The translations under genes were made by a program, and so were the position numbers. A DNA stretch of 64,000 nucleotides. Origin: Planctomycetota bacterium. GTDB taxonomy: Bacteria > Planctomycetota > UBA8108 > UBA1146 > JAJFFE01. Positions 4,859 to 46,384 of the stretch are shown here, in pieces. The notes under the pieces were generated by a model. It made no database searches. It was not told the origin of the DNA and worked only from the letters and a program-made list of their open reading frames with translations. How positions within the stretch are numbered: position 1 is the first letter of the stretch; every line of letters starts with the position of its first letter. The stretch is taken from contig JBFWWP010000032.1 in NCBI GenBank assembly GCA_050246115.1, positions 1,078-65,077 of the forward strand. Reading direction: 5' to 3'.

Positions 4859-7477
4859 TCACGGGCAGCTGCTCGGCGGGAACAGGCAACCGAGGAGCAC
4901 GCTGGCCGGGTGGCACGCGGGCAGGGCACCACCCCAAGCCGGCGGAGGAGGTCCGCCGGCAAAGAGCCACGCAAGAAGATAGATCGGGTCGGCGATGTTG
5001 AAGAGGTTGTCACTATTGCAGTCGAGCGCGGCAGTGCAAGACCCTGCGCCCGGCGCGAACGGCGTCGCGCCGAACGGGCCGGAGCCGCCGGCGCCGGGTG
5101 GAAACAGATTGCTCAGCGAGATGATCGCGTCGCCCACGGTGATGTTCCCGGTGCCGTCCGGATCGCCCGCGATGATCATCGTCGGACCTCCGAGCGTGAC
5201 CGAACAACAGGCCGGGGGTGCAATGAGTCCCAGCCCTTGTTCCTCGGCCCGAACGCAGAACTCGACCAAGCCGACGAGACCGGTCACAGTCTGAGTGTAG
5301 CTGAAGGAGAGCGGCCCGAACGGGCTTCCCGGGACTTCCGCTCCGTTCTGGAATACGCGGTAGTGGGTCGGCAGCGGCCCTATCGACGGCGGACTCCACG
5401 TCACGGTCAGCAAGTTCGCGATCGAGGCGTCGCAGTTGACATTCTCGGCCGGGGACAACGCGCCCGTTCCATCCAAGTTCAGACTCGCGAGGGATCCTTG
5501 GTTTCCGAGGGCCGTGATGACGCCGCCCAGAGCGAGGTCGTTGAAGGCCATCTGAGAGTCGGGCGGTAAGAGCGCCAAAGGGTGGCCGGGAACGCTGAGT
5601 TCCAGAGTTTCGTTCGAGCTGTTGGTGATCCACAGTCCGTGCTGGGGATTGAGGTTCTCCGGCGCATGAAGGTCGATGTTCGGGACGCTGAACTGCCCGG
5701 CCCCCGGAGGTCCGGCGAAGTCCACGACCGCCACCGGCCCCAAGTCGTCGACGTTCTCGAGTACCAACGCGTTGTCGACCACGCTGCCCAGGAAGGGGCT
5801 GCCTGCCGGGTCGTTGGAGGTGTCGGAGAGCTCCACTTCGATCTCCGACAGAAACTCGGCGATCGTCGAGAAGTTTACGACCTGGAACACCACATAGATG
5901 GTGAGGGTGGCGCCGGGAGCGCCGGGGATGATCTCGATGGTGGTCGTCTCCTCACAGGCTTCGGGCATATAGCGCGTGCCATCCAGCAGCGTGTCGTAGT
6001 CAGTGTTGTTCTTGCCCTTGAACATGCGGCGCATGCGATCGGCCGCCATTTGGTCTGCGGGGTCGATGCTTGCCTGCGCCATCGCGATCTTCCGGGCCTG
6101 GGCCGCCCAGTAGTTCTTACGTCCGCTGTTGATCACGGCCTGGGCTGCCGGGGAGATCTCGAACGCGGCGGCCCGGCGGATCTTGGTCTTCACGAAGCGG
6201 AAGGTCGGTGGCGTCGGCGGCAGTTGGATGTTCAGGCAGATGATCACGATGCCCGCCCGCGGATCGAGCGGGTCGACCGCGAAGTCGTTCATGCGCACGA
6301 GGATTCCGGTTTCATTCGGATCGTCGGGCCCGGGGAACGTCCCGAATCCGAGGCCGCCGCTCGCAAGCGAACCCGTGAGCGGGGAACTCGGGTCGAACAG
6401 ACGGGAGCGAGGAACCCCACACTCGACGTTCGCCGGGTTGCCATTGACCACTTGGAGCTCGGGTGGGCAAGGGCCGCCTGCATAGTGGAAGATGGGGATG
6501 CTGGTTCCCAGCTCGCGTATCTCGAACTGACCGATGCCGACCGAGGAAGGCCCGAAACCCCCGATCTGGATCAGCACCGTTTGCCCGGCGCTGGCAAGGA
6601 AGCGCACGGTCGACGTGAAGTTGTTGCAACCGGGTTCGTCGTCTTGGCACGCGATGGGGGGGAAGAGTCCCGGGTCGGGCGGGCACGGAACGCTATTGTC
6701 CCAGACAGCGATCCGAGTGTCGAAGTTGCCGATGTTGCACGTCGTGATCTCGATCTCGCCGCCATGGGTTACGGTATAGGTCCACCACAGGTCGTTGTGG
6801 ATGATCGGGTCGAGGCCGAACCACGGTGCACAAGTAGCCGGGATGATCCCCAGGCCGTCGGTTGTTGCCGTCGTCGTGTCGAGCGGGTTGAGTCCTTGGA
6901 CGGCCGCCAGAGGGTTCGTACAGCTGTCGTTGAGCGCTGGCGGGCCGCAGTTGACCGTGATCTGCCCAGCCCCGACCGCGCCATTGTATCCGCAAACCTG
7001 GAGGAGGTAGGTGGCGCCCGCGACGACCGGCCACATGACTACCGACTGCAGCCCACACGTGTCGTCGTCGCAGCCGACCTCCAAAGCCGGCGGGCACACC
7101 GTGTCGGCGTAGACCACGAGGCGAGTATCGTAGCTGCTTCCGCACATCGTGGCCGTCGCAAGACCGGTACAACTCGCCGTGTAGGTGTACCAAATGTCGA
7201 CCGGCTCGAGGGTGCCGCCACAGCTCGGGATCGGACCATCGTTCGAGTCGAAAGTCGTGTCGAACGACTGAGTCCCACCGTCGCTGAGCGGGATGGCGGA
7301 GAAGCAGCTGTTGTTCACCGACTGCGCATCGACGATCGCGATCCAGGAGGTTGCGATGAAACACGCCAGTCGTACCCACACGGTCCCGAGTGATCTCGAA
7401 GCGAATCGGGCCGTCGAGCCATGCGTCGGACTGGAGCGAGACCTGGTTGCCGGTAGCTGGATCCTGGTTCGGAACAT
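4859..7477 (-). CDS. Large secreted protein: two N-terminal PPC-like (pre-peptidase C-terminal) Cys-rich domains and a C-terminal dockerin-like double Ca-loop module
   Basis: Start taken at internal ATG 7477 (MFRTRIQ), ahead of the hydrophobic signal LACFIATSWIAIVDAQS. Two tandem ~120-aa repeats carry the DIWYTYT...SSYDTRLVVY...TYLLQVCGYNG and DLWWTYTV...NFDTRIAVW...TVLIQIGGFG patterns. C-terminus has DPDGTGNITVGDAIISLSNLF and NSDNLFNIADPIYLLAWLF loops and ends ...SSCP. Confidence 0.6.
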   Translation of the reverse strand: MFRTRIQLPATRSRSSPTHGSTARFASRSLGTVWVRLACFIATSWIAIVDAQSVNNSCFSAIPLSDGGTQSFDTTFDSNDGPIPSCGGTLEPVDIWYTYTASCTGLATATMCGSSYDTRLVVYADTVCPPALEVGCDDDTCGLQSVVMWPVVAGATYLLQVCGYNGAVGAGQITVNCGPPALNDSCTNPLAAVQGLNPLDTTTATTDGLGIIPATCAPWFGLDPIIHNDLWWTYTVTHGGEIEITTCNIGNFDTRIAVWDNSVPCPPDPGLFPPIACQDDEPGCNNFTSTVRFLASAGQTVLIQIGGFGPSSVGIGQFEIRELGTSIPIFHYAGGPCPPELQVVNGNPANVECGVPRSRLFDPSSPLTGSLASGGLGFGTFPGPDDPNETGILVRMNDFAVDPLDPRAGIVIICLNIQLPPTPPTFRFVKTKIRRAAAFEISPAAQAVINSGRKNYWAAQARKIAMAQASIDPADQMAADRMRRMFKGKNNTDYDTLLDGTRYMPEACEETTTIEIIPGAPGATLTIYVVFQVVNFSTIAEFLSEIEVELSDTSNDPAGSPFLGSVVDNALVLENVDDLGPVAVVDFAGPPGAGQFSVPNIDLHAPENLNPQHGLWITNSSNETLELSVPGHPLALLPPDSQMAFNDLALGGVITALGNQGSLASLNLDGTGALSPAENVNCDASIANLLTVTWSPPSIGPLPTHYRVFQNGAEVPGSPFGPLSFSYTQTVTGLVGLVEFCVRAEEQGLGLIAPPACCSVTLGGPTMIIAGDPDGTGNITVGDAIISLSNLFPPGAGGSGPFGATPFAPGAGSCTAALDCNSDNLFNIADPIYLLAWLFAGGPPPPAWGGALPACHPASVLLGCLFPPSSCP

Positions 7478-7790
7478 GAGATTCCCCTTTCGGTTGCGTG
7501 CCGGCCTGTGCTTCGCTCCTCGCGAGCACCCAGGTCGAGCACCGTTGGCGGGGCAACCACGGCGTTGTCGTGGAGTTGCTCCAGCTCCTCGTTGAGGAAT
7601 GGAGCCAATTGCGGACACACAATTCGGTGAGAACGAGGGGTCGTAGCGATTGTGGCCCACTCCCGGGACCCGGGTCGTCGCGCGTCTTGGGTGGCCAAGC
7701 CGCGATCGCGTCACCCCAGAAACGCTCGCCTTCGGCTCATAGCGCCAGCGCCAACTGGAGGCGCTCGTAAGTGTGCTCGCTCTTGGGGCA

Positions 7791-8489
7791 CTAGTCTGGG
7801 GCGGGACTTTCTTCGATGCCCAGGCGCCGCAACTGCTCGCGCAGTCGCGCGACCGCGCGTCGGTGGCGTTGGCGGGTCGCGTCCTCGCGGAGGCCGAGCG
7901 CCTTCGCGGCCTCGGGTAGGGGAACGTCCTCGTAATCGAGGAGCACCAGGATCTCCTGGTCAGCTGGGGCGAGTCGGGCGAAGGCCCGTTGCAGCCAGGC
8001 CGCGCCTTCGGTGCGCTGCAGGGCCTGCGATGGGGTCGATTGGTCTCCGGTGAAGCCGTCGAGACCTGGGTGAGCGTGGCTGGTCTCTCGGACCTCGGGT
8101 TTGGCTTCTCGGTCTACGCTCCGCTTTTGGGCGCGCTCGCGCTCGATGGCCTTGAGGAGGCTGTACTCCGCGATTTGGTCGAGATACGCGCGAAACGCGG
8201 TCGGGCCCAGATTCTCGAAACGATGGCGCAGCGAGACCAACTCGAGTGCCGTGAGTTGCACGATGTCGCTCGCTCCCAACCGCGCGCGGTACTTTGCCGG
8301 CAGACGCGCCGCGATGCGCTCCCGCAGCCGCGGGCCCTCCAGTTCGACGATCTCGCCGAGCGCCGTGTCATCGCCGGCAGCGAAACGAGCCAGCAGAGAC
8401 TCAGCGGCGCGCTCCGATCGCGCTTCGTCTTCGGGGGGATTCTCGGAACGCGCCACCGGTACGGCCTCCAGCCTGGGTACGATCGACAT
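7791..8489 (-). CDS. ECF-type RNA polymerase sigma-70 factor
   Basis: Region-2-like DIVQLTALELVSLRHRFENLGPTAFRAYLDQIAEYSLLKAI and region-4-like LAPADQEILVLLDYEDVPLPEAAKALGLREDATRQRHRRAVARLRE. Start at ATG 8489 (MSIVPRL) inside the longer track ORF. Divergent from the Ser/Thr kinase gene. Confidence 0.75.
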   Translation of the reverse strand: MSIVPRLEAVPVARSENPPEDEARSERAAESLLARFAAGDDTALGEIVELEGPRLRERIAARLPAKYRARLGASDIVQLTALELVSLRHRFENLGPTAFRAYLDQIAEYSLLKAIERERAQKRSVDREAKPEVRETSHAHPGLDGFTGDQSTPSQALQRTEGAAWLQRAFARLAPADQEILVLLDYEDVPLPEAAKALGLREDATRQRHRRAVARLREQLRRLGIEESPAPD

Positions 8490-8622
8490 GCCAACCCGCA
8501 GTCGGGCGATGCAGGGACGAGACGACCCCCGCCCGTCCGGGTGCTCCATTGTAGCCCCCGCGCCTACCCCGGCCACTGACGTGACCCTTGTCCGATCCTC
8601 GCCCCTGTGATTCGATGGACAA

Positions 8623-11418
8623 ATGATGCCTGCCGATTCCGCCGATCCCACCCGTCCGAGTTCCGCGTCTGCTCCCGAGGTCGTTGCCGACAGCTACGTC
8701 GACTTCCTGGTTCAGCAGCGCGTCGACTCGGGGGCCGACTTCGACCGCTTTTGTGGTGAGCGCCCGGCGCTCGCCCAAGCGCTCCGGCGCTTGCACGACC
8801 GCTTCCGAGCGGGTGTGGCCGAAGCGAGCGCTCCCATCTCGCTCGCCTTCTCCGAGAAGCTGCTCGGGCGGTACGGGCCGTGGACGGATTCGGGCGCCCA
8901 GGGTTCCGCGGCACCGGCGGGCGGTCCGTCGGCGACGGGAACCGCGACCGGCGCGCTGTCGGCTTCCGAGCCGCGTTACCAGGTTGGGGAAGAAGTCGCT
9001 CGCGGCGGCATGGGCGCGATTCTTCGGGTTTGGGACCGTTCCTTGGAGCGAACGCTCGCGATGAAGGTGATGCTCGCCGAGCGTCGAGCCTCCGGGGAGA
9101 ACTCACCGCTACTCCAACGCTTTTTGCGCGAAGCGCGGATCACCGGACGACTCGATCACCCGGGAGTGGTTCCTGTGTACGAGATCGGAGTCGACGCCAC
9201 GCAAGGGGTCTTCTTCACCATGCGTCTCGTCGCAGGGCGTGACCTCCGGCAGATCTTCGACCTCGTGCGTCGACGGGTCGATGGGTGGACCCGACGGCGC
9301 GCCCTCGAGGTCGTGCTGAAGGTCTGCGACACAATGGCTTACTGCCACGAGCAGGGAGTCGTGCATCGAGACCTCAAGCCCGCCAACATCATGGTGGGCA
9401 GCTTCGGTGAGGTCTATGTGATGGACTGGGGGCTGGCGCGGCTCGCCGACGAGTCTTGCCCGAACGTAAGCACCGACGATGGCGCCCAAAGCGCGCTCGC
9501 AATGGACGGACCGGACGCGAGCCTCACTCACGCCGGGCTGGTGCTCGGCACGCCGGCCTACATGCCGCCCGAGCAAGCATTGGGTCTGAACGAGTTGGTC
9601 GGGCCACGTGCCGACGTCTACTCGGTGGGGGCCATGCTGTACGCGTTGCTCGCGGGCTGTGCTCCCTATCGAGATGGCGAGGCGCCGCCGGCCGAAGTGA
9701 TCGCGGCCGTCCGCGTGGGGCCGCCCACAGCGATTGCGGTGCTGGATCCGCAGGCACCCGCAGGACTCGTTGCGATCTGTGAACGAGCGATGGCGCGCGA
9801 CCTGGAGCAGCGCTACGGCAGCATGGCGAGTATGGCCGATGCCCTTCGCGAGTACCTCGAGTCGGAGCAACAGGCCGCCCGGGAAGCGGAACGGGCGCGA
9901 GCCGAGGCGGAGAACGCGCAACGCGTCGCGAGCTTCCTCGCTTCCATCTTCTCGGTGTCCCACCCGGAGGAGGCCCGGGGGGCAAGCGTCTCTGCACGAG
10001 AGATCATTGACCGCGGCGCCGAGCGAATCGACCAAGATCTCGCGGATCAGCCCATCGTCCAGGCGACCTTGCGCCACACCCTCGGCGAGATCTACCGCAA
10101 TCTCGGACTCGTCGAGCCCGCCAGTCGCATGCTCGAGGCCGCGCTGGCGATGCGCGAAGCGGGACCGTGTGCTGACCCGGTCGAGGCCGCCCGCACACTG
10201 ACGGCGCTCGCCTCCGTTCGAGCGCAACAGGCTCGCAGTGGCGAGTCGCTGCCGCTGTTCCGACGCGCCCTCGAACTCCGGCGTTCAGTCTTGGGCAACG
10301 AGCATCCGGCGATCGCCGCGAGTGCGAGTGACCTCGCGGCCGCCTTGTGGGAAAGCGGCGACTATCGCGCGGCGGAACCTGTGATCCGTGACGCCGTGGA
10401 CCTCATGCGACGACTGGGTCTGGGAAAGACCCGCGAGATGGCGCCGGTGCTCCTGAACATGGCGCTCGTCTTGTTCGCCCAACAGCGGTGGAGCGAGGCG
10501 GTTCCGTGCTACCGTGAGGCGCTCGAGATCTTCCGGGAACAGGCGCCCGACTCCATCGAAGCGGCTTCGTGCGCCAACAACTTCGGAGACTGTTACTTCG
10601 CCATGGGAGACTACGCAGGTGCCTGGGAGTTGCACCAGGAGTCCCAGCGTTTGCGCCAGAACCTGTATGACGCGAGACATCCGGCCACGGCGATGGGCTA
10701 TCAGAATCAGGGAACCACCTTGGTGGCATGGGGTGACGCTGCGCGTGCCATACCGCTGCTCGAACTCGCGCTCGATATCCGCAGGGAGAGGTTTGGGAGC
10801 GAGCACCCTTCCGTCGCTACTTGCTACGCGAATCTCGCGACGTGTGCACGGGACCAAGGGCGCCTGACCGACGCCGAAGCGCTGCACCGGGAAGCGCTCC
10901 GAATCCGTGAAGCCAGCTTGGGACCAGAGAGCCCGGTCGTGGCCTCGAGTCTTGCTGGTTTGGCGGCTATCCTCGTGGCGGTCGGTCGGTTGGAGGAGGC
11001 CGAGTCCTTGTACGAACGCTCCTTGCGAATCCGCCGTCAGAAGATTGGCGATGACTACTTCGGCAACTGGACGAACGAGTTGGGACTGGCGACGATCGCG
11101 CATGCGCGCGGCCAACTGGCGGTAGCTCGAGCGAGTGCCCAGCGGGTCATCGATGCCTACGAGCGCCATTTGCCTCGGCACCCCAATGCCGCTTCGGCAC
11201 GTCACCTGCTCGCCACCATCCTAGCCGACCTGGGTGACCTCGAGGCTGCGGCGACACAGGCCCGCGAAGCGGCTGCCATTCGTCGCGAGCGTTTGCTTCC
11301 GACGCACCCCGCGCGGGCCGAATCGGAACAGCTCTGGCTGCGCCTCGAGGATGCGGGCCGGGACGGGGCGGGGCCACGCACGACGCACCCGCCAAACGAA
11401 ACGGAGAATCCTTGCTGA
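8623..11418 (+). CDS. Serine/threonine protein kinase with C-terminal TPR repeats
   Basis: Kinase subdomains GGMGAILRVWD...LAMKVM (GxGxxG / VAIK-like), HRDLKPANIMV (catalytic loop), DWGLAR (DFG-like) and APE-like PAYMPPE. C-terminal half is repetitive TPR-like (NLGLVEPASRMLEAALAMRE etc.). Confidence 0.85.
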   Translation: MMPADSADPTRPSSASAPEVVADSYVDFLVQQRVDSGADFDRFCGERPALAQALRRLHDRFRAGVAEASAPISLAFSEKLLGRYGPWTDSGAQGSAAPAGGPSATGTATGALSASEPRYQVGEEVARGGMGAILRVWDRSLERTLAMKVMLAERRASGENSPLLQRFLREARITGRLDHPGVVPVYEIGVDATQGVFFTMRLVAGRDLRQIFDLVRRRVDGWTRRRALEVVLKVCDTMAYCHEQGVVHRDLKPANIMVGSFGEVYVMDWGLARLADESCPNVSTDDGAQSALAMDGPDASLTHAGLVLGTPAYMPPEQALGLNELVGPRADVYSVGAMLYALLAGCAPYRDGEAPPAEVIAAVRVGPPTAIAVLDPQAPAGLVAICERAMARDLEQRYGSMASMADALREYLESEQQAAREAERARAEAENAQRVASFLASIFSVSHPEEARGASVSAREIIDRGAERIDQDLADQPIVQATLRHTLGEIYRNLGLVEPASRMLEAALAMREAGPCADPVEAARTLTALASVRAQQARSGESLPLFRRALELRRSVLGNEHPAIAASASDLAAALWESGDYRAAEPVIRDAVDLMRRLGLGKTREMAPVLLNMALVLFAQQRWSEAVPCYREALEIFREQAPDSIEAASCANNFGDCYFAMGDYAGAWELHQESQRLRQNLYDARHPATAMGYQNQGTTLVAWGDAARAIPLLELALDIRRERFGSEHPSVATCYANLATCARDQGRLTDAEALHREALRIREASLGPESPVVASSLAGLAAILVAVGRLEEAESLYERSLRIRRQKIGDDYFGNWTNELGLATIAHARGQLAVARASAQRVIDAYERHLPRHPNAASARHLLATILADLGDLEAAATQAREAAAIRRERLLPTHPARAESEQLWLRLEDAGRDGAGPRTTHPPNETENPC

Positions 11419-12462: not shown

Positions 12463-15400
12463 CTATGGGCACGGCATGTCGGCCGAGCACCCGAGCGTGT
12501 CCTCCTCGCCTGGGTCTGTGCCGCATCCCTCCACGAAGGGCTCGGGCGGGTTCGAGCCATTGGCGAACAAGTATCCAAGGAGGTAGATCGGGTCGCTGAT
12601 ATCCAAGTTGCCGCTGTCGTTCACGTCGCAGGCATCGTCGCAGGCTGCCGCTCCGCCGCCCGCGAACAGGAGTGAGAGCATCCGCACCGCGTCCGCGATA
12701 TCGACCGCACCGCTGGGGTTGCAGTCGCCGCGTACGAACTGCGGCAATCCAATCGCCGTGACCCCGACCGAGACCACCCAGTCCTGGACCGTAGTGCCAC
12801 CGGGCGCCGTGACGATCACGCGGAACGGGCGGTTGCCTGTCTGTACCCCGGTCGGCGTCCACTGAATCTGGCCAGTGTCGGGATCGATCGCAGCTCCTTG
12901 CGGTGCCAACGGCAACTGATAGTCGAGGCTACCGGCTTCCAAGCCAGGCAGGTAACCGTCTACGTCGTAGAGGTACGCCACGCCGACGGCGGCAGTCAGG
13001 ACCGGGGTGCTCACGACGACCGGGCCTGACAGGATCGGGCACGCGAAATCGACGGTGCAGCAGTGAGTGTTTCCGGGTATGCCCACCGAGTCGATGCAAG
13101 TGATGCAGTAGGTGCCCGCCTTGCAGTTGGGGACTACATACATCCCGTCGCTCGCTGCCACGAAAGCGATCGTCATACCGTTGAGGCTGATCTGCATCTC
13201 TCCGCAGCAGTCGGAGGGGGCCGGCGGTGGGGTCCAAGTCAGCACGAGGTTGCTCCCTTGGAACATACACATGACGCCGTCCACGCAGGGATCGCTGCAG
13301 TCTTCGGGGTCCACGGTGCAGCAGAGTACGGTCGGCGGCGTGCCCTGGTTGCTGCACTGCAGGCAGTACTCGCCGGGCTGGCATACTCCGGGAACCGTGA
13401 AGGTCGTTGTGCCGGGAGGAACCGGGAAGGTCGTGCCGCCGGCGGTGGTGACGCTGAGCGATTGGCAGCAGTCATGGCCCGATAGGGTCCAGGTCAGTAC
13501 CACCTGGCCGTTGACCACGTCGCACACGAAGTTCGACACGCACGGAGTGGGCCCGCAGGGCGGCAACGTGATGCAGCGATCGATCGCGCAGCAGTCCTGA
13601 AGGGTGGCGTCGTGGACCGAGATCTGGAAACAGAGAACCTGGCCCGGAACACCGCCCACGACCTGAGTCGACAAGGTCACGGATCCGCCAGGCGGGACCG
13701 GTGAGAAGCTGAACGCACTCGGCGCGAAGCTCACGCCAGCCGGGAGCGCCCCCAACAGGAAGGCGTTCTCGAGGGTAAAAGGAGAGACGTTCGTGAGCGT
13801 GAACTGATAGGTGTACTGGCCCGGGTTGAGCGGGTCACAGACGACCGACGCGTTCGAGACCTGGACGCAACCACAATCGGGTAGGTCCACACAGAACTCC
13901 GTGCCGCAGCAGTCCTCGAAGTTCGAGTCGAGCAACCCGAGGCGGAAGCACGCCTGGGTTCCACCCGTGCCGTTCGTGATCACGAACGTGACGGTCGCGC
14001 TGGCGCCGTTGGCGAGCGGCGGGCTCTGCGGAAACACGTTGGGCGAAGCCACCACCGGCGCCCCGGGAACGGTGGACGTCGGTGGAATCACGATGTTGGT
14101 GACGGGCACCCCCGAGTCGTTGGTCACCGTCATGTTGACGACGAACGTCGTGCCGGTCGGGTCGGTGAGGTCGCACAGGACTTCTACGTCGGTGATGGCC
14201 GCGCAGTCCGACGATGCAAACACCTCGGGAATCAGCACAAGGGTGCCGAGCGAGGTCTCCATCGAAGGGCCGCCACTCGCGGCGATGAAGGTGCTGTCGT
14301 CCCACTGCCCGCGAAGGTAGAGGTTGGCGTTGGTGTTGTCTTGATTGCGCACCAGCCAATTGAAGTAGCCCTCCCGCGGCGGGCCGGCGACGTTGGGTGC
14401 CAACCCGAATCCGGGTACGACTCCGGGGTTGCCCGTTTCCTCGCCGAACTCCCAGTCGAACGTCACGGCGCCGTTCACCAGCGGCACTTTCGCGATGTTG
14501 AGTGCGTCCGCTGTGATCCGAAGCGTGCGAGCTACGGTCCACATGGTGTAGTAGTTGCCACGGTTCCCTTCGCCGAGTCCGCCGATCGAGTCCTCGTGCC
14601 AGCCGGCCCCGAGCCAATCAATGGCTGCCTGACGTTTGGCTGCGATCGTGTTCAGCGGCGCCGGGGCCGCGGCAATCACGGCGCCCACCGGGACGATCGA
14701 CTCGGTTTCCACGAGTGCCAGCCCCGAGAGACCCGCGGACGTCGTCGATCGTCCTTGGTTGGTCGGCCAGGTAATGAGGGGCGAGTTCGAGTCGTAGCCG
14801 AACCACTGGGGGCCCGCCGCGTTCGGCTGGTGGAAGACCAGGCAGTACTCGGCTTCCTGCTTGATCCAGTCGGGAACAGGAATGTTGTAGTTGGTGGCCT
14901 CGGCACCCTCGAGTGTTACGAACATCCAGCTGTTGATGGACTGGTCGCTGCGCACCGATGGACCGGTGTAGTTCCAACCGCCGCGCGGGCCGCTCGGGGG
15001 AGCGCTGTTCTGTTGGGTGCCGATGAAGTCGATGAGATCCTCGACAACGGTCTTGTAAGAGTCACCGGCAAATGGACCCACCGTAACGAGACGGGCCGGT
15101 GACAGCGCGGCAATGATGGCCGCGGTCGAGATGGCGACCTGGTAGTTGTCCGAGGTGCCCATGCACGGCCGAATGCTACGTCCGTTCCCGTTCAAGTCGG
15201 AAACCCCGTTTGCGACCGCGCCCCGAACGACGTCAGCGTTTGCGGCAACAGTGCCCGCCACCACGAGGTTCGCGAACAGCTGATCGAGGCCACGTTGGAC
15301 GAACTCGGCGTAGATGTCGTCGTCGCTGGCGATTGGAGTGGTGGGCTTGTGTCCCTTGTTGCCGAAGCACCAGAGTGCGAACCCGCCCTCTGCACAGGGG

Positions 15401-15942
15401 TTGAAGCCAGGCCAGGCTCCGCTCGGAAGCTGCTGCAGGTAGAGGCGACGGAGACCGTTCTCGATGGCAATGTTGACGTCGATTTGCAGGCCCGCTGTTT
15501 GCGGGACCGAGGACGGGTCGGTGGGATCGATGATTTGAATGAACACGGAGTCAGAGAAGGTGTTGCTGAACCCATCGACGGCGGTCAAGGTTGCAAGGAT
15601 CGTCTCGTTGGTACTGAAGTTCAGGAGGTTGAAAGTCACCTCTTCGACGATGAACTTGGGGTCGGAGACGATGCCCGACAGGTTGCCGTCATCCACCACC
15701 TGTACGTTTGCGTTGGGGGCGAAAGACCAAGTGTAGCTGGAGCCAAGGGCGCCGGCTCCGCCACCGTTGGCATTGCCCCAGACGAGCGTTCCAACCGCAG
15801 GACGGGCGGGGTGCGGGGCAGTCCGCGGCATGTGCGGCGCGCCGGGCATAACGTTGACCTGGGTCAGCTGCGCATGCGCCGCGGTGGCGACGAGGAGGCA
15901 GAAACCAAGGGAAGTGAGCGACACAGCTCGGCAGCTCGTCAT
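12463..15942 (-). CDS. Very large secreted multidomain protein (1159 aa): signal peptide, possible alpha/alpha-toroid (prenyltransferase/terpene-cyclase-like) region, five DCC/CC Cys-motif repeats, C-terminal dockerin-like module
   Basis: Signal MTSCRAVSLTSLGFCLLVATAAHAQ. Repeated motifs FEDCCGTEFCVDLPDCG, LQDCCAIDRCITLPPCG, HDCCQSLSVT, SDCCGEMQISLNG, HCCTVDFACP. C-terminus GDCNPSGAVDIADAVRMLSLLF ... CDVNDSGNLDISDPIYLLGYLF ... CGTDPGEEDTLGCSADMPCP. Confidence 0.7.
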   Translation of the reverse strand: MTSCRAVSLTSLGFCLLVATAAHAQLTQVNVMPGAPHMPRTAPHPARPAVGTLVWGNANGGGAGALGSSYTWSFAPNANVQVVDDGNLSGIVSDPKFIVEEVTFNLLNFSTNETILATLTAVDGFSNTFSDSVFIQIIDPTDPSSVPQTAGLQIDVNIAIENGLRRLYLQQLPSGAWPGFNPCAEGGFALWCFGNKGHKPTTPIASDDDIYAEFVQRGLDQLFANLVVAGTVAANADVVRGAVANGVSDLNGNGRSIRPCMGTSDNYQVAISTAAIIAALSPARLVTVGPFAGDSYKTVVEDLIDFIGTQQNSAPPSGPRGGWNYTGPSVRSDQSINSWMFVTLEGAEATNYNIPVPDWIKQEAEYCLVFHQPNAAGPQWFGYDSNSPLITWPTNQGRSTTSAGLSGLALVETESIVPVGAVIAAAPAPLNTIAAKRQAAIDWLGAGWHEDSIGGLGEGNRGNYYTMWTVARTLRITADALNIAKVPLVNGAVTFDWEFGEETGNPGVVPGFGLAPNVAGPPREGYFNWLVRNQDNTNANLYLRGQWDDSTFIAASGGPSMETSLGTLVLIPEVFASSDCAAITDVEVLCDLTDPTGTTFVVNMTVTNDSGVPVTNIVIPPTSTVPGAPVVASPNVFPQSPPLANGASATVTFVITNGTGGTQACFRLGLLDSNFEDCCGTEFCVDLPDCGCVQVSNASVVCDPLNPGQYTYQFTLTNVSPFTLENAFLLGALPAGVSFAPSAFSFSPVPPGGSVTLSTQVVGGVPGQVLCFQISVHDATLQDCCAIDRCITLPPCGPTPCVSNFVCDVVNGQVVLTWTLSGHDCCQSLSVTTAGGTTFPVPPGTTTFTVPGVCQPGEYCLQCSNQGTPPTVLCCTVDPEDCSDPCVDGVMCMFQGSNLVLTWTPPPAPSDCCGEMQISLNGMTIAFVAASDGMYVVPNCKAGTYCITCIDSVGIPGNTHCCTVDFACPILSGPVVVSTPVLTAAVGVAYLYDVDGYLPGLEAGSLDYQLPLAPQGAAIDPDTGQIQWTPTGVQTGNRPFRVIVTAPGGTTVQDWVVSVGVTAIGLPQFVRGDCNPSGAVDIADAVRMLSLLFAGGGAAACDDACDVNDSGNLDISDPIYLLGYLFANGSNPPEPFVEGCGTDPGEEDTLGCSADMPCP

Positions 15943-16033: not shown

Positions 16034-16705
16034 CTACGAGCACGGTGGAAAGTCGAGACAGCTGAGTTGGTCGTTGGTCGGATCGGTCCCGCAGCCGGGG
16101 TAGGGCGCCGGCGGAGGCGCGGCGCCACCGAACAGCACGGACAACGTACAAATCGCGTCCGCGATGTTCGCTTGCCCGTCGTCGTTACAGTCGCACGCGT
16201 CGAAACAGACCGGAGTCACGCCCTGTGAGAACAGGTAGCCCAAGAGAGAGATTGGATCTGCAATGTTGAAGTTGCCATCGGCGTTGCAGTCGCCTCGGAT
16301 GAGGGACGGTGTTCCGCAGCCCGGGAAGGTCAGGTCGAGCGCGACCGCGCAGCATTCCCCGAGGTCGGCATCGTGCAGGGACAAGAAGAGGCTTAGTTCC
16401 TGACCAGGGAATGCGCCGAAGACGGTGGCATGGAGGATCAGAGTCTGATCGGCGGCAAGGCCGAGGGATTCTTGCGGAGTGAGGGAGAAACCGATGTTCG
16501 GCGGCAGCGTTGGGTCGCCCAGGATGAATGCGTACTCCAAGGTGAAGCTCGCGAGGCTGTGGACCGACAACTCGAGGTCGTAGGTCGCCGTCGCCACATC
16601 CAGGCATTGGAGCGTCGGCACGACTTCGATGCAGTTCGCCACGAGGGGGGGGCCGCTCGACCCAACGGCGACCAACACCGCCACAGCAAGGAAGTTTCCG
16701 CGCAT
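16034..16705 (-). CDS. Small secreted protein with one CC Cys-motif and C-terminal dockerin-like module
   Basis: Signal MRGNFLAVAVLVAVGSS. LSLHDADLGECCAVALDLTFPGCG parallels the repeats in the 12463..15942 protein. C-terminus IRGDCNADGNFNIADPISLLGYLF ... CDCNDDGQANIADAICTLSVLF ... CGTDPTNDQLSCLDFPPCS. Confidence 0.6.
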   Translation of the reverse strand: MRGNFLAVAVLVAVGSSGPPLVANCIEVVPTLQCLDVATATYDLELSVHSLASFTLEYAFILGDPTLPPNIGFSLTPQESLGLAADQTLILHATVFGAFPGQELSLFLSLHDADLGECCAVALDLTFPGCGTPSLIRGDCNADGNFNIADPISLLGYLFSQGVTPVCFDACDCNDDGQANIADAICTLSVLFGGAAPPPAPYPGCGTDPTNDQLSCLDFPPCS

Positions 16706-17072: not shown

Positions 17073-17450
17073 GTGAAGTCTGATCGAGTCGAACGCCGGC
17101 GAACCGTACGAGTGCCCTTCCGAGAGTCCACGACCGTCACCCTAGGTGGACGGTCGTGGACTGGGTGTACGCTGGACATGAGCCTGGGAGGTATGCGTTT
17201 TCGCGCCGACGAGGACGAGGGCCTGCCGAGTCTCGGCACGACGATCGACGGGTTGTTGCCGATTGCGCCTGGGCAACCGGTCACGGCGCTCTTCGAGGTG
17301 ATTCATCGAGAGCAGCGCGACCTCGGTCTGGCTTTGCGTGCCATCTCCGCGGACGGATTCGCTCACCTGCGCGAAGTGGTTCGCTGGAACTCGCCGACGG
17401 GTCACGATGGCTTCGCGGAGCTCACGGAGCTTCTCCGGGACGGCGACTGA
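17073..17450 (+). CDS. PilZ-domain c-di-GMP-binding protein
   Basis: RRRTVRVPF (RxxxR) and DMSLGGMRF (D/NxSxxG) PilZ signature motifs. GTG start after the AGGCCAAGG SD-like sequence. Confidence 0.7.
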   Translation: MKSDRVERRRTVRVPFRESTTVTLGGRSWTGCTLDMSLGGMRFRADEDEGLPSLGTTIDGLLPIAPGQPVTALFEVIHREQRDLGLALRAISADGFAHLREVVRWNSPTGHDGFAELTELLRDGD

Positions 17451-17524
17451 CCGTGACCCAAGAGGTCCGCCCGATCGATACGCCTGCAAGTGCGGGTTCG
17501 GGCGGTCGTCGATCGACGGGATGA

Positions 17525-18409: not shown

Positions 18410-18491
18410 GAAGTTCCTCCGCGGCTTCGGGTGCCCGGCGATCAGGAAGGCCCGAAGGCCTTCACGACCGGCTCAACGCCCGGACCCGGTC

Positions 18492-19967: not shown

Positions 19968-19980
19968 AAGAGGTGCGCTC

Positions 19981-21060: not shown

Positions 21061-21071
21061 ACGAGAGCTTA

Positions 21072-21905: not shown

Positions 21906-21906
21906 C

Positions 21907-22543: not shown

Positions 22544-22553
22544 CAGCCGGGCC

Positions 22554-32113: not shown

Positions 32114-33967
32114 TCACGGGCAGGCGGCGGCGCACCCCAGAGTGTCCGCCGTCGGATCCACTCCGCAAGTTCCAACGGGCGGGCGTAAGGGGATGGGGGG
32201 TTGTCCGAACAGCGACCCGAGTAGGATCACGGCGTCCGCGAGGTTCAGCCCTCCGTCATCATTCGCGTCACAAGCGTCGCTGCAGGTGACCGCGTTTGGA
32301 GTGCCGGTAGGAAAGAGGAAGCCCAACAGGAACACCGCATCGGAGATGTTCTCTGCGCCGTCGACATTACAGTCTCCGCGCACGAGCGTCGCCGTTGCCG
32401 AACACTCATCCGGGGTTCCGTCGCCGTCGGTGTCCGTACTCGTTCCACTCGCGATGTCGCATGGGTCCGGAGTGCCATTGCTGTTGCAATCGGCGAAGGC
32501 GGGCGCGGTGAACAGAAGCCACAAACTCCCGAACCCGGTGGTCGGGAAGTCGCCGACGGCCCCGACCGCGATCTCGCGGTGTCCGTCTCCATCGATGTCG
32601 GCGAGCGCCTGGAGCGAGCGACCGAACGAGCTCGTGTCGATCAGTGCACCATCGAAGTCGCCGGCGGTGTCGCTGATCTTCTGCCCACCGAGCACCGTGC
32701 CGCCAGGTTGCAGCGTGAGCACCCACACCGCACCGCGGTTTGCGAAGTTGCCCACGCCGCCATCGTCGTCCAACGGGGCGCCGACCAACAAGTCGGGGAT
32801 GTCGTCGCCATTCAGGTCACCGGGCGCCCCGACCGCGGAGCCGAAGGCATCACCACCGCTCAGTCCCGCAGGGAGATTGCCGGCGAGCGCGCTGATCTTC
32901 TGCGTTCCGGAAACCGATCCGAGCGGGCTCAGAAACAAGATCCAAACGGCGCCCGTGTCGTTTGCGCCGTCGTCGTCGAGGCGCGCGCCGACCGCGATGT
33001 CGCCCACGAGGTCCCCATCGACATCGCCCACCGCTGCCACCGAGCTGCCGAAACCGTCGAGGTCGTCCAACACTCCCGCGAACGCCCCGGAGGTTGCGCT
33101 GATCTTGTGCTCCGCCACGACGCTCCCGGTGTTCGTCAAATCGAGGAGCCAGACCGCGCCGCGGTCCATGCCGCCATCGTCCGTTCCGCGGGCACCGACC
33201 GCGAGGTCCGGGACGCCGTTCCCATCACGGTCGCCCAACGCTGCCAGCGACTCGCCAAAGAAGTCGAATGCGGCGAGCGTGCCCATGAATGAGCCCTGCG
33301 TCGCGCTGACCTTGGCGAAGCCGCTCACCGCGGGGCCGGGAGCGAGAAACAAAATGTACACGGCACCCGCATCGCTGGCGCCATCGTCATCACCAGTAGC
33401 TCCTACCGCCAGGTCCACTGTGCCGTTCTGGTCGACATCGCCTACTGCAGCGACGGCGGACCCGAAGCGGTCGCTCGCGTCGAGTGGGCCCGTGAATCCG
33501 CCTTGGCCCTCCGCGATCTTCGTGTGGCTGGAGACCGTGCCATCGGCCGCGAGGAGCAAGATGTAGACGGCGCCTTGGTCCGATCCGCCATCGTCATCGC
33601 CGGGTGCGCCCACCGCAATGTCGGGGATCCCATCGCCATTGAGGTCGCCCACCGAGGCGATGGCTTGGCCGAAGCGGTCGAAGGGGTCGAGGTCCACGCC
33701 GAACCCGCCGGTAAGGTCACCGATCTCCGTCTCCCCCGTGAGCGCCCCTGCCCACGCGCCGAGGTCGCACTCGTCAGGAATGCCGTTGACGTTGCAGTCG
33801 GCACTGGTGCCGCTGCTCAAGTCCAGCGCGTCGTCGATGCCGTTGCCATTGCAGTCAGCACCCCGAAGTGCAGTTGGCTCGCTCAGCGTACCCGCGAGCA
33901 GCAGGGTCACTCCCGCCAGCCAGCCCTGCCAGCGCGTGAGCGCGGTGAAACGGAACAACGAAGCCAT
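32114..33967 (-). CDS. Secreted FG-GAP/VCBS-repeat (integrin-alpha-like beta-propeller) protein with C-terminal dockerin-like module
   Basis: Signal MASLFRFTALTRWQGWLAGVTLLLAGTLS. At least 7 repeats of the DxNGDGxxDLAVGAxGDDDGG type. C-terminus LVRGDCNVDGAENISDAVFLLGFLF ... CDANDDGGLNLADAVILLGSLF ... CGVDPTADTLGCAAACP. Confidence 0.7.
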   Translation of the reverse strand: MASLFRFTALTRWQGWLAGVTLLLAGTLSEPTALRGADCNGNGIDDALDLSSGTSADCNVNGIPDECDLGAWAGALTGETEIGDLTGGFGVDLDPFDRFGQAIASVGDLNGDGIPDIAVGAPGDDDGGSDQGAVYILLLAADGTVSSHTKIAEGQGGFTGPLDASDRFGSAVAAVGDVDQNGTVDLAVGATGDDDGASDAGAVYILFLAPGPAVSGFAKVSATQGSFMGTLAAFDFFGESLAALGDRDGNGVPDLAVGARGTDDGGMDRGAVWLLDLTNTGSVVAEHKISATSGAFAGVLDDLDGFGSSVAAVGDVDGDLVGDIAVGARLDDDGANDTGAVWILFLSPLGSVSGTQKISALAGNLPAGLSGGDAFGSAVGAPGDLNGDDIPDLLVGAPLDDDGGVGNFANRGAVWVLTLQPGGTVLGGQKISDTAGDFDGALIDTSSFGRSLQALADIDGDGHREIAVGAVGDFPTTGFGSLWLLFTAPAFADCNSNGTPDPCDIASGTSTDTDGDGTPDECSATATLVRGDCNVDGAENISDAVFLLGFLFPTGTPNAVTCSDACDANDDGGLNLADAVILLGSLFGQPPIPLRPPVGTCGVDPTADTLGCAAACP

Positions 33968-37520: not shown

Positions 37521-38146
37521 GCGGAGTTCATTCCGTGGTTTGGCTCGGCAAGGGTTCGCAGCGCGCGGCCAAGGCGCTGCAGTGCGCGCGCGTAGCGCAA
37601 GCTCGCGGCGGGCTCCGACAACTCGAGCCGCTGCGCCACTTCTTGATTGGTCAGACCTTCGAAGTGCCGGAGCCCCAGCACTTCCCGATCCGAGTCGCCG
37701 AGACGGGCGAGTGCGGTCCGTAAACGAAGCGCGTGTTCCCGTTGTGCCAGGAGCACCGACGGAGAGTCGCCGCTGGCGGCCAGAGTCCCGACGGTCGCCT
37801 CGGAGTCACCCTCCCGGGCCCGACCCGCGAGTCGGGCCTCGCGCCGGACGTCGCGCTTGCGCCGGCCGAGGTGATGCCGGTGCACCTCCGCGATCTTCTG
37901 AAGGGCGAGGTAACGAACCCAAACCGAGAGCGAGACGCTGGGCTCTTGGGCTTCATAGCTCGGCAGGCGGGTCACGGCCTCGACGAAGATGTCCTGCACC
38001 ACGTCGGACGGGTCGACGCGTCCGCGGAGGCGTCGGTCGAGTCGGACAGCGACCATGCGCCGGATCCACGCGCGATGGGTTTCGAGGCGTTCGTACGCGT
38101 CGAGTCGTGCAGGTACGTTGGGCGTCGGCGCGGATTCGGCGCGCAT
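37517..38146 (-). CDS. ECF-type RNA polymerase sigma-70 factor, translationally coupled to the downstream Ser/Thr kinase
   Basis: Region 2 DVVQDIFVEAVTRLPSYE...VWVRYLALQKI. Region 4 DREVLGLRHFEGLTNQEVAQRLELSEPAASLRYARALQRL. Confidence 0.8.
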   Translation of the reverse strand: MRAESAPTPNVPARLDAYERLETHRAWIRRMVAVRLDRRLRGRVDPSDVVQDIFVEAVTRLPSYEAQEPSVSLSVWVRYLALQKIAEVHRHHLGRRKRDVRREARLAGRAREGDSEATVGTLAASGDSPSVLLAQREHALRLRTALARLGDSDREVLGLRHFEGLTNQEVAQRLELSEPAASLRYARALQRLGRALRTLAEPNHGMNSA

Positions 38147-38401: not shown

Positions 38402-39283
38402 ATGGACTACTCGATCCGGGCGACATTCCGGCTCGTCTTCGTGTCTGCGACTCTCTGCGGTGCGCTCGGCGCGCAGTCGATCAACGTGAACTTCGGAACG
38501 ACAGCGTTGCCCGTCGACTACGCCGGGGTCGGCCTGCCGGGCTTTTGGAACGTGACGAGCGGTGCGCAGGGGCCGGTCCATCCCTTGATGAGCCTGGCGG
38601 GACAGCCGACGTCCGTGAACTTCACGAACATCGGCGGCACCGCCCTCCTGACGCAAGCGAGCCCCGCCCCGGGTGTGGACGGAGACCTCATGACGCAGTA
38701 CCTCGTCACCCACAATCCCAACCTCGAGGTGTGCATCTTCTTTCACAACTTGCAGCCTGGCACCTATCTCGTGATTGCGTACACCTGGCTTCCCAATGCC
38801 AGCAGTCTGGTGAGTGTCGATCAGGCAGTGGGTCCGGACGAACTGGTAGGGGGCCCATGGCCCGGGGGGCTTGCCGAGGGACGAACTCACTCCGTGCGAG
38901 TGGCCCAGGTCACCAACGGCAACCTGGGGCTGCACTCGGGGGTGCCGCCGGGAGCCAGTCCGGTGGTGGCGGCACTCAACGGCGTGCAACTCGTGCTACT
39001 GCCCGTGTCGAACCCCTTCGTTCGGGGCGACGTCAATGGCGATGGGTCGCGCGACATCGGCGACGCCGTGGGTACGCTGCAGCACCTCTTCGGTGGGGTA
39101 CCGAGTTCGTGTCTGGATGCGCTCGACTTCAACGATGACGGCGCCGTGGACATCGGCGACGCCGTGGCGTTGCTCGCGAACTTGTTCCAAGGACAGCCGG
39201 GACCGACGCTCCCGAGTGTTGCCTGCGGACCCGACCCGTCGTTGGACCCGATCGGTTGCACGAGCACCGCGGCGTGCCCCTGA
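38402..39283 (+). CDS. Secreted protein with C-terminal dockerin-like module
   Basis: Signal MDYSIRATFRLVFVSATLCGALGAQS. C-terminus FVRGDVNGDGSRDIGDAVGTLQHLF ... LDFNDDGAVDIGDAVALLANLF ... CGPDPSLDPIGCTSTAACP. Confidence 0.6.
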   Translation: MDYSIRATFRLVFVSATLCGALGAQSINVNFGTTALPVDYAGVGLPGFWNVTSGAQGPVHPLMSLAGQPTSVNFTNIGGTALLTQASPAPGVDGDLMTQYLVTHNPNLEVCIFFHNLQPGTYLVIAYTWLPNASSLVSVDQAVGPDELVGGPWPGGLAEGRTHSVRVAQVTNGNLGLHSGVPPGASPVVAALNGVQLVLLPVSNPFVRGDVNGDGSRDIGDAVGTLQHLFGGVPSSCLDALDFNDDGAVDIGDAVALLANLFQGQPGPTLPSVACGPDPSLDPIGCTSTAACP

Positions 39284-45557: not shown

Positions 45558-45685
45558 GGGTGGGCAGGGCCGGTCGCGGACTCAACGCCCACCGGTTCAG
45601 AATCGACCGGCGACGTGCTAGAGTCAGCGGCGCCAGGCGCGCGCGTAGCGCCCCCTCGATCACCCCCATCGGAAGGAAACACGAG

Positions 45686-46384
45686 ATGAAGGTGACCCCA
45701 ACCACTCGAGCGCTGGCCCTGATCGCTCTCCTCCTCGTCGCGACGCCCGCCTCCGGCTTCATTCGGGGCGACGTGGACGGGGGAGGAAGCGTGGATATCG
45801 GCGACGCGGTCGTTCTGCTCAACTCGTTGTTCGCACCCCAACCGCCGCAGGTCGCGTGCGCGGACTCCGCGGACACGAACGATGACGGAGCGGTGAATCT
45901 CGCTGACGCCATCTACTTGTTGGCGGCGCTGTTTCAGCCTTCCGCTCCGCCCATTCCTCCCCCGTACCCGAGCGATGGTATCGACCCGACTGCGGACCCA
46001 CTGCCACCCTGCGGTCCGCTGGGACTGCTGACCGTCGCAACGTTGTCCCAGGGTCCGGTCTCCGGGGACAGCACGCCGACGCAAGAGATCATCGTCGACG
46101 CGGTCGCCTGGAGTGCTTTCTGGGCGCAGCACTCGTCCGATCCGCAACCGTTCGTCGACTTCAGCACCGAGATGGTCGTCGCCATTCGCGAGGCGTTCGA
46201 TAACGCCGGCGTCACCATCAACATCGACGAGATCGAGGCGCTTGGAGCGACGCTCGAGATTCGCTATACGCTCACGCTTCCCGGTGTGCCACTTTCCCAG
46301 GCGGAGCAACCGCATCACTTCGTGCGTTGCCCGAAGGTGATTGCGCCGCCGGTCTGGGTGGCGACCGTCATCGCCTTGCCGTAG
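45686..46384 (+). CDS. Secreted protein with the dockerin-like module at the N-terminus, directly after the signal peptide
   Basis: GGAAGGAAAC SD-like then ATG 45686. Signal MKVTPTTRALALIALLLVATPASG. FIRGDVDGGGSVDIGDAVVLLNSLF ... CADSADTNDDGAVNLADAIYLLAALF ... PSDGIDPTADPLPPCGP. Confidence 0.6.
   Translation: MKVTPTTRALALIALLLVATPASGFIRGDVDGGGSVDIGDAVVLLNSLFAPQPPQVACADSADTNDDGAVNLADAIYLLAALFQPSAPPIPPPYPSDGIDPTADPLPPCGPLGLLTVATLSQGPVSGDSTPTQEIIVDAVAWSAFWAQHSSDPQPFVDFSTEMVVAIREAFDNAGVTINIDEIEALGATLEIRYTLTLPGVPLSQAEQPHHFVRCPKVIAPPVWVATVIALP

Follow-up and report, generated by a model that had tools for sequence, protein, structure and literature searches.

We interpret a segment of about 90 residues, found in six proteins with signal-peptide-like N-termini, as a Planctomycetota-type dockerin, that is, the type I dockerin fold extended by an additional tail, fastened by a predicted disulfide clasp and inferred to dock onto cohesins; we put the probability of this reading at about 0.6. 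The module, a very common yet unnamed variant of a known docking module, most likely serves to hold secreted proteins at extracellular sockets of the cohesin type. The window analysed, a 64-kb stretch of DNA, belongs to a contig of a Planctomycetota MAG whose locus tags begin with AB7O52_ and whose NCBI proteins include MGE3166585, MGE3166586 and MGE3166605. Scans of the whole window for tRNAs and Rfam families gave no matches.

Translations and alignments placed all six copies where the first-pass annotation had proposed them; the module is present in 6 of roughly 40 genes in the window:

12466..12759, minus strand: full-form C-terminal module, loops DCNPSGAVDIAD and DVNDSGNLDISD, tail CGTDPGEEDTLGC..CP
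16037..16321, minus strand: full-form C-terminal module, ending ...CGTDPTNDQLSCLDFPPCS
32117..32401, minus strand: full-form C-terminal module, residues 523-617 of its carrier, the copy modelled with AlphaFold2 (pLDDT 89.7)
38990..39280, plus strand: C-terminal module with both predicted tail disulfide pairs, without the optional Cys pair of loop 1 and the residue before loop 2
4862..5188, minus strand: divergent C-terminal module with a 14-aa linker insertion and tail ACHPASVLLGC..SSCP
45737..46003, plus strand: short-form module directly after the signal peptide, its only cysteines being the linker Cys and a single tail Cys

A self-built HMM derived from these copies gave exactly six matches in the six-frame translation of the window. 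As an independent test of relatedness, pairwise BLASTP with composition correction, for which the entire six-frame window defined the database size, was significant for all 15 module pairs (E from 4e-5 for the weakest to 2e-21), which disposes of the concern that the segments might be unrelated. In line with the double loops recognised at first pass as type I dockerin-like, every copy contains two 12-residue loops of the form D-x-[ND]-x-[DSTG]-[GDN]-x-x-[DNT]-[IVL]-x-D, with the residues at the Ca ligand positions of both loops conserved. The proposed common CP ending needs two exceptions, the 16034 copy, which ends in CS, and the copy in the protein referred to here as '45560', where the final Cys is absent; the latter is termed the short form because the CG and CP cysteines of the tail are both missing. 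The proposed tail consensus also fails for the 4859 copy, which has no GxDPT alongside its linker insertion.

Type I dockerins (PF00404) consist of two tandem 12-residue Ca-binding loops, each with an alpha-helix, in repeats of about 22 residues. By fold comparison, the AlphaFold2 model of the 32117..32401 copy has the dockerin three-dimensional fold, with helices at residues 19-29 and 54-64, one after each loop. The Dockerin_1 profile search suggested at first pass gave a mixed result: two of the six carriers scored above the Pfam gathering threshold of 22.9 bits (27.9 bits for the 45737..46003 copy and 24.5 bits for the 38990..39280 copy) and one fell below it at 15.9-18.2 bits, whereas with the modules scanned alone the profile detected five of the six (best E 3.9e-7) and missed one. 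At E<=1e-5, Dockerin_1 found just 4 of 90 module relatives. A canonical EF-hand pair (PF13499) was considered and rejected; one of the six modules gave an EF-hand_7 match at E 0.23 and the others none, and structural matches of the model to calmodulin-type proteins were insignificant. Nothing in Pfam, NCBIfam or the solved structures corresponds to the Pro-rich, Cys-containing tail of about 30 residues, and, as had been suspected, the matched solved dockerins show no equivalent. The model, which the first-pass annotation had suggested for inspecting this tail, nevertheless predicts it confidently as folded with the core into one compact dockerin fold.

The cysteines of the module vary in pairs. 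Across 493 modules, taken as raw counts that ignore kinship, the CG Cys and the terminal Cys are both present in 266, the first alone in none, the last alone in 29 and neither in 198; for the loop-1 Cys and the Cys before loop 2, the same raw counts, again ignoring kinship, are 127 with both, 5 and 17 with one of them and 344 with neither. Conservation is about 98% for the linker Cys and about 97% for the LxC Cys. From this joint presence and absence of cysteines in three pairs we therefore predict a disulfide 'clasp' made up of a near-invariant bond between the linker Cys and the LxC Cys, a bond between the CG Cys and the final C(P) Cys, both of which are present or neither, and an optional third that would join the residue preceding loop 2 to loop 1, at position 3 of the latter. 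In the numbering of the modelled copy, the predicted pairs are C40-C90, C79-C94 and C11-C44, in that order. The core would be a duplicated EF-hand-like Ca2+-binding loop-helix pair, followed by a Pro-rich spacer and a tail of about 20 residues that would fold back against both the N-terminal strand and the linker between the repeats. In the model, DSSP assigns isolated beta-bridges to precisely C40 and C90 and shows residues 5-6 paired with 80-81. Given its predicted locking by disulfides, the tail would therefore be a covalent version of the dockerin 'intramolecular clasp', one that would suit an oxidising extracellular environment.

A profile of the module matched 45,709 representative proteins, with 26,040 library representatives at E<=1e-10, and the standard annotation of most of the matched proteins is 'hypothetical'. 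Every related genome locus belongs to an uncultured MAG, in nearly all cases with the label Planctomycetota, and single related MAGs hold dozens of modules each; one contributing sample is labelled as being from 2000 m depth. The cargo is highly varied, with 55 different Pfam families in 90 module-bearing proteins. It might be supposed that the resemblance between modules reflects chance, or the composition of Asp/Gly/Pro-rich sequence in a genome of 65% G+C, the segments being rich in D, G, P and A. This reading is already refuted by the composition-corrected BLASTP pairs, the library census and the confident fold prediction, and the conserved, covarying cysteine pattern also speaks against it.

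The six carriers all have signal-peptide-like N-termini, as judged by eye:

12463..15942, minus strand: 1159 aa; signal peptide, unknown N-region, repeated Cys-Cys beta-domains, He_PIG Ig domain, module
16034..16705, minus strand: 223 aa; signal peptide, one Cys-Cys beta-domain, module
32114..33967, minus strand: about 617 aa; signal peptide, FG-GAP beta-propeller between DCNxNGxPDxCD motifs, module
38402..39283, plus strand: 293 aa; signal peptide, 180-aa passenger domain, module
4859..7477, minus strand: about 872 aa; signal peptide, galactose-binding-like regions (weak matches), unknown regions, divergent module
45686..46384, plus strand ('45560'): about 232 aa; signal peptide, short-form module, 124-aa C-terminal domain of unknown family

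Likely true starts lie at 7477 (MFRTR), 33967 (MASLF) and 45686 (MKVTP). The earlier description of the carriers as otherwise unrelated has to be amended for one pair, since the N-domain of the 16034 protein is homologous to part of the protein next to it, 12463 (residues 684-794; E 8e-13), both being Cys-Cys beta-domains. The PPC domain attributed to the 4859 carrier did not hold up, as Pfam returned only a sub-threshold GBD_T9SS_assoc match. Two domains were considered as possible cohesins and set aside. The C-terminal domain of the 45560 protein had no phmmer match to 150 multi-module proteins and only insignificant Pfam matches, together with a weak NCBIfam PrcB match (E 0.019) that we do not trust. 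The N-domain of the 38402 protein is a passenger domain with interchangeable anchors, its homologues ending in the module, another short dockerin-like repeat, nothing or a PEP-CTERM signal.

As the first-pass annotation had observed, no cohesin-like domain is present in the 64-kb window, either by Pfam on about 36 predicted proteins or by a spacer-derived HMM run on the six-frame translation at maximum sensitivity. The link to cohesins comes from relatives, many of which alternate the module with divergent cohesin domains; examples are proteins of about 650 aa such as P0136, in which three modules enclose two cohesin-like domains. The spacers of about 180 residues between modules form one family (124/130 match a single HMM), and the Pfam Cohesin gathering score is passed by two related proteins, P0129 (46.2 bits) and P0135 (37.6 bits), and by isolated spacers at 29.2, 26.0 and 25.5 bits, with many other cohesin-like assignments lying below that threshold. 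In 11 of 80 related loci, a set retrieved with a subfamily alignment and hence biased towards the three-disulfide form, a cohesin-like domain lies within 10 kb, and in 9 of these 11 the ORF that encodes it also carries a full-form module at its C-terminus. The four best PDB matches of a profile built from these locus domains are all cohesins, although the matches are weak; an AlphaFold2 model of P0287 (signal peptide-cohesin-like-module), made from an 8-sequence alignment, reached a pLDDT of 43.7 and was left out of the fold search. This fusion and alternation in relatives supports a Ca-dependent docking to cohesins, in which a module appended, mostly C-terminally, to many unrelated secreted proteins would plug into divergent cohesin modules whose genes lie in other parts of the genome, thereby tethering or assembling its carriers at the cell surface or in an extracellular matrix.

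Anchoring, sorting and docking had all been entertained at first pass; the fusions favour docking, whereas sorting fares poorly. The module would, on the sorting reading, be a C-terminal secretion or sorting tag read by an outer-membrane export or attachment machinery, with the free ...CP end mattering. The full form (CG and terminal Cys) does lie within five residues of the stop in 231 of 266 cases (87%), with P the commonest last residue, and its very diverse cargo, the signal-peptide-like N-termini of all six window carriers and its exchange with PEP-CTERM on one passenger family would suit such a tag. The position is not obligatory, however: the 45560 module is N-terminal, and relatives with 2-7 tail-bearing copies per protein carry them internally, N-terminally and in tandem, so the tail is not strictly C-terminal as had been claimed. 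It has no hydrophobic membrane-spanning segment or basic end, being polar, Pro- and Cys-rich and ending in CP or CS; Pfam and NCBIfam sorting-signal models matched none of the six proteins, which also speaks against the possibility, raised at first pass, that it is an annotated sorting domain; and no dedicated sortase-like or translocon gene stands beside the genes in the 64-kb window. With the whole segment predicted as one compact fold, the tail is not a C-terminal sorting peptide, and we regard the module as a tag of this kind as quite improbable.

Dockerin-like modules outside cellulosomal bacteria often occur in genomes without recognisable cohesins, and the module might accordingly be a partner-less, dockerin-like appendage, stabilised by Ca2+ and disulfides and serving folding, solubility or protease resistance, or else a binder of something other than a cohesin, for example a cell-wall glycan, a component of the S-layer or outer membrane, or colonised mineral or algal surfaces. 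The cohesin-free window, the 69 of 80 related loci with no cohesin-like domain within 10 kb and the heavy investment in predicted disulfides and Ca sites, consistent with a stability role, are all compatible with this. Set against them is the repeated fusion of the module with cohesin-family domains, a link of the Rosetta-stone type; that the module and PEP-CTERM replace each other on one passenger domain points towards a localising role and away from a stabilising one, and a stabiliser would hardly be expected in arrays of up to seven tail-bearing copies per protein. We therefore consider a partner-less module unlikely and favour cohesin docking.

Planctomycetota are largely aerobic aquatic bacteria. 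We suggest, tentatively and with some doubt, that they may run a very large, uncharted cohesin-dockerin system, in which disulfide-clasped dockerins on a wide range of unrelated secreted enzymes and adhesins meet divergent cohesins, and [dockerin-cohesin]n-dockerin proteins self-assemble into a protein network outside the cell or on its surface, a 'planctosome' matrix. If so, cohesin-dockerin assembly would be one of the main ways of organising the cell surface in bacteria far removed from the anaerobic cellulolytic Firmicutes, with the Cys clasp as the system's adaptation to oxidising water. With a defined model of the full module of about 95 residues, much of the Planctomycetota secretome would gain an annotation; the disulfide map obtained from covariation is a directly testable structural prediction, and the fusion with divergent cohesins renders the 'planctosome' idea open to experiment. 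The predicted disulfide-locked, Ca-dependent dockerin could also serve as a robust affinity or assembly tag.

Like PEP-CTERM/exosortase signals and the T9SS CTD, the module is a promiscuous C-terminal appendage on unrelated secreted proteins, and one passenger family uses either PEP-CTERM or the module; it is set apart from them by its different fold, by the lack of any transmembrane helix or basic tail, and by its occurrence at positions other than the C-terminus. In the solved type I dockerins of cellulosomes (PF00404; PDB 1OHZ, 2CCL, 5M2O, 3UL4), nothing corresponds to the extension of about 30 residues formed by the Pro-rich spacer and CGxDPTxDxLxC..CP; the module has 4-6 conserved, pairwise-covarying cysteines. 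Cellulosomal dockerins belong to anaerobic cellulolytic Firmicutes, whereas the module belongs to uncultured Planctomycetota and its cargo is not cellulolytic.

In the Ruminococcus flavefaciens ScaA dockerin, an intramolecular clasp based on Trp-Pro stacking brings the segment before loop 1 into contact with the C-terminal end and stabilises the Ca-bound fold; the known dockerin clasps consist of one or two residues held by non-covalent contacts of an aromatic, hydrophobic or electrostatic kind (PMC3821032). The termini of our module are likewise paired in the model, but through a dedicated hairpin of about 20 residues, predicted to be locked by two disulfides. The 'Planctosome' hypothesis holds that cohesin and dockerin proteins of the freshwater Nemodlikiaceae, among them adaptor proteins with both domains, assemble extracellular multiprotein complexes; its basis was the annotation of domains in a small number of proteins from a single family, and it did not describe the Cys tail (PMC6461901). 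Both proposals concern non-cellulosomal cohesin and dockerin modules in Planctomycetes, and ours goes beyond the earlier one in defining a very large module subfamily and linking it to alternating module-cohesin arrays.

The double-loop module is present at all six places where the first-pass annotation had put it: the ORF translations agree with its coordinates, and a module HMM built from the six copies gave six hits and no more in the six-frame translation of the window. Because this HMM was self-built, pairwise BLASTP with the whole six-frame window as search space served as an independent test of relatedness, and 15 of 15 pairs were significant (E 2e-21 to 4e-5), in line with the proposal that the six segments are mutually related. 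Two canonical acidic loops of 12 residues are seen in every copy, and the six carriers, among roughly 36-40 predicted window genes, all have a hydrophobic, signal-peptide-like N-terminus by visual inspection. The carriers, named by ORF coordinate, and one neighbouring gene are as follows.

4859, minus strand: carrier with the module at its C-terminus
12463-15942, minus strand: 1159-aa carrier, module at its C-terminus
16034-16705, minus strand: carrier, module at its C-terminus
32114-33967, minus strand: FG-GAP propeller carrier, module at its C-terminus
38402, plus strand: carrier with a 180-aa passenger domain (38474-39010, plus strand), module at its C-terminus
45686-46384, plus strand: likely gene of carrier 45560, module at its N-terminus
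46439-49825, plus strand: 1128-aa BNR/Sortilin-Vps10 repeat protein

The module at 4859 is present but divergent, with an insertion in the linker and no GxDPT in its tail, and the CP ending ascribed to the six copies has to be given up for 16034, which ends in CS, and for 45560, whose N-terminal copy is without the first and last tail cysteines. Nor are the carriers all otherwise unrelated, as had been supposed, since a ~110-aa Cys-Cys beta-domain is common to the adjacent 12463 and 16034 (BLASTP, E 8e-13); it ends with a conserved HDAxLxxCC motif, and the 1159-aa protein has two or more copies of it (at about residues 590-690 and 684-794). This domain belongs to no Pfam family and gave only a weak DUF11-type repeat match; in the database fragments P0006 and P0028 it lies, as 'ECC...', directly upstream of the module. 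The propeller of 32114 is flanked by the Cys/Asp motifs DCNxNGIPDxCD / DxDGNGIPDECE (residues ~35-70 and ~490-520), and motifs of this kind directly precede the module in many database fragments, including P0019, P0021 and P0024-P0026; they may be a further small unit, Ca-binding or disulfide-bonded, that travels with the dockerin. The short-form module of 45686-46384 is followed by a 124-aa C-terminal domain with only a weak match to NCBIfam PrcB (E 0.019), and since the co-oriented BNR/Sortilin-Vps10 gene begins 55 bp further downstream, the two may form one operon.

The Pfam Dockerin_1 gathering score was passed by two of the six full-length carriers, and when the modules were scanned alone the family was detected in five of six. 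Against all PDB sequences, a 39-sequence profile ranked dockerins first (best 2y3n_B, E 1.3e-6), with the PDB dockerin matches covering profile positions 10-65 only. An AlphaFold2 model of the 32114 module from a 39-sequence alignment reached a mean pLDDT of 89.7 and a pTM of 0.80, and its top 33 Foldseek matches in the PDB were all dockerins. The two loops with their helices thus form a genuine type I-like dockerin, as first proposed, an identity and fold that are well supported.

The last ~30 residues (a Pro-rich spacer, CGxDPTxDxLxC, 3-5 residues and CP) found no match in Pfam, NCBIfam, PDB sequences or PDB folds, which bears out the view that this tail is foreign to classical dockerins, among the PDB sequences and folds searched. 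As modelled, it is not a loose peptide and is confidently placed, with pLDDT values of 90, 90 and 75 in the last three 10-residue blocks; DSSP pairs a two-residue strand at 5-6, before loop 1, with 80-81, after the CG cysteine, and sets isolated bridges exactly at C40 (linker) and C90 (LxC). We counted cysteines, without correction for phylogeny, in a pooled set of 493 modules drawn from the window as well as from genome loci, database fragments and representative proteins: the CG and terminal cysteines occur together in 266, the former alone in 0, the latter alone in 29 and neither in 198, while those at loop-1 position 3 and at the residue before loop 2 occur together in 127, the former alone in 5, the latter alone in 17 and neither in 344. 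The linker and LxC cysteines were present in 98% and 97%, respectively, of a smaller 126-sequence set. Three predicted disulfides would be the simplest reading of this pattern, supported by covariation and model: a linker-LxC bond that would always be present, a CG-C(P) bond that would define the full form, and an optional bond between loop 1 and the residue before loop 2. All three Cys pairs are found in 12463, 16034 and 32114, the two tail pairs in 38402 and 4859, and the invariant pair only in 45560 (short form).

The full form ends no more than five residues before the stop codon in 231 of its 266 occurrences, most commonly with Pro as the last residue; this C-terminal bias is real, and it is what a secretion or sorting tag would call for. 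The tail is not strictly C-terminal, however, as had been claimed, for tail-bearing copies are also internal, in head-to-tail arrays with as many as seven copies in one protein, or directly after the signal peptide, as in 45560 of the window. Because of these non-terminal copies, and because the tail has neither a hydrophobic helix nor a basic end and is matched by no sorting-signal model in Pfam or NCBIfam, we read it as part of the domain and not as a signal peptide, and a sorting tag appears improbable.

Among 1.84 billion 50%-identity representatives, the module profile matched 45,709 proteins at E<=1e-3, 26,040 at E<=1e-10 and 905 at E<=1e-30, counts that are upper bounds for the tail-bearing form since plain dockerin repeat arrays score too; at least one module extends into the tail in 142 of the top 150. 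Named matches are almost throughout from Planctomycetota MAGs, annotated "hypothetical" or "dockerin type I". A one-genome-per-species scan with a single peptide pattern gave 238 confirmed loci, and the 80 kept (1.25 Mb, 191 modules) come without exception from uncultured MAGs, nearly all of which carry the label Planctomycetota, with more than 20 loci from MAG P01_B01_bin.70. At least two modules occur in 49 of these loci, and paralog clusters like that of the window are thus typical. A few matches carry the label 'Candidatus Poseidoniia archaeon' or 'Bacillota bacterium' (P0021; L026); being nearly identical to Planctomycetota sequences, they seem to stem from mis-binned contigs and not from a wider taxonomic range. 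The cargo is very diverse in that 90 module-bearing proteins matched 55 Pfam families, among them FG-GAP propellers, di-haem cytochrome c peroxidases, glyoxal/galactose oxidase-like proteins and subtilases, as well as GH76, PKD, beta-helix and VWA domains. Dockerin_1 reached E<=1e-5 in only four of the 90, so the module is badly under-annotated; its very large abundance, this poor annotation and the concrete experiments that it enables give it moderate interest.

The window itself is nearly all of a 65.7-kb MAG contig labelled "Planctomycetota bacterium" (NCBI), with a G+C of ~65%. Exact-sequence matches of its proteins include MGE3166586 ("hypothetical protein AB7O52_16925"), MGE3166585 ("putative Ig domain-containing protein") and MGE3166605 ("dockerin type I repeat-containing protein"). 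The non-module gene content is consistent with Planctomycetota; no tRNA or Rfam family was found across the window.

7791-8651, 37517-38146, 39374-42106 and 50214-52166: four sigma-70/ECF-type factors
8623-11418: Ser/Thr kinase-TPR repeat fusion
17073-27619: chemotaxis/signalling cluster (PilZ protein, CheY-like receiver, CheB, CheX, globin-PAS-MCP, CheA-CheW)
22554-24941: globin-PAS-MCP chemoreceptor (globin-coupled MCP) within this cluster
25214-27619: CheA-CheW within this cluster
27675-28757: FHA-GGDEF protein adjoining this cluster
34173-37520: Ser/Thr kinase-WD40 repeat fusion
57241-58224: IS200-like Y1 transposase, weak match
61380-63185: HipA-like kinase, beyond the transposase match

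The four sigma factor genes adjoin genes for module-bearing or other secreted proteins; two of the four products have long C-terminal extensions, one of them with CarboxypepD_reg domains. Between 56001 and 60000 the G+C falls to 0.61 and the GC skew rises to 0.13, and this stretch may be an inserted element.

For the passenger domain of 38402, 13 homologs (P0274-P0286) revealed four kinds of C-terminus: the module, a short dockerin-like repeat (GDVDGDG...LLAAWG-CPGC-DLDGDG...LLxNWG), no appendage, or a PEP-CTERM sorting signal (PF07589). The module here takes the place of a known surface-anchoring signal, an interchange that would be expected of a localisation module.

A search of the 64-kb window detected no cohesin, just as none had been visible at first reading, and this speaks for a partner-less stabilising domain or a binder of another ligand, a reading that we regard as rather doubtful. 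Among relatives, the highest-scoring representatives recurrently show a signal peptide-module-~180-aa spacer-module-spacer-module architecture, with three modules in 600-720 aa in 25 of the top 150. A single HMM matched 124 of 130 spacers, and members of this family pass the Pfam Cohesin gathering score (P0129, 46.2 bits; P0135, 37.6 bits; isolated spacers, 29.2, 26.0 and 25.5 bits), others being too divergent to do so. Proteins of ~650 aa in which three modules alternate with two cohesin-like domains after a signal peptide include P0134, P0136, P0137, P0140, P0141, P0144 and P0147; with three plugs and two sockets in one protein, self-polymerisation into a network could be possible. A cohesin-like domain occurs within 10 kb in 11 of the 80 genome loci, and nine of the 11 share an ORF with a C-terminal full-form module as small signal peptide-cohesin-like-module proteins. 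The four best PDB matches of the locus cohesin-like profile are cohesins of solved cohesin-dockerin complexes, albeit weak (best E 0.009); four of eight locus domains gave weak Pfam Cohesin matches, and an AlphaFold model of a cohesin-like plus module protein from a shallow alignment had a pLDDT of 43.7. In one related MAG, an in-frame stop codon interrupts the cohesin-like domain that precedes a full-form module (L050:2092-2526), which is thus a pseudogene or else the product of misassembly. The domain fusions in relatives suggest that the module binds cohesins, and among the anchoring, sorting and docking functions first proposed they favour docking. We give a probability of about 0.6 to a Planctomycetota-specific, disulfide-clasped dockerin that would form a Ca-dependent tether between diverse secreted proteins and divergent cohesins encoded elsewhere. 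Chance resemblance, whose likelihood is vanishingly small, is already refuted.

Dockerin-like domains themselves are known in Planctomycetes at annotation level, with expansions noted (PMC5264255; PMC6461901). What appears new here is the Cys tail, its covarying cysteine pairs and the alternating module-cohesin proteins, of which we found no description in the open-access literature searched. Natural intramolecular disulfides in dockerins receive no mention in a 2025 structural review of cellulosomes. In the R. flavefaciens ScaA dockerin, an intramolecular clasp between the termini stabilises the Ca-bound fold and the cohesin-binding site (PMC3821032); the tail resembles it functionally, although the predicted clasp of the module would be covalent. 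Finally, the putative module-cohesin tether would resemble the "planctosome", a proposal based on domain annotation in freshwater Nemodlikiaceae (PMC6461901).
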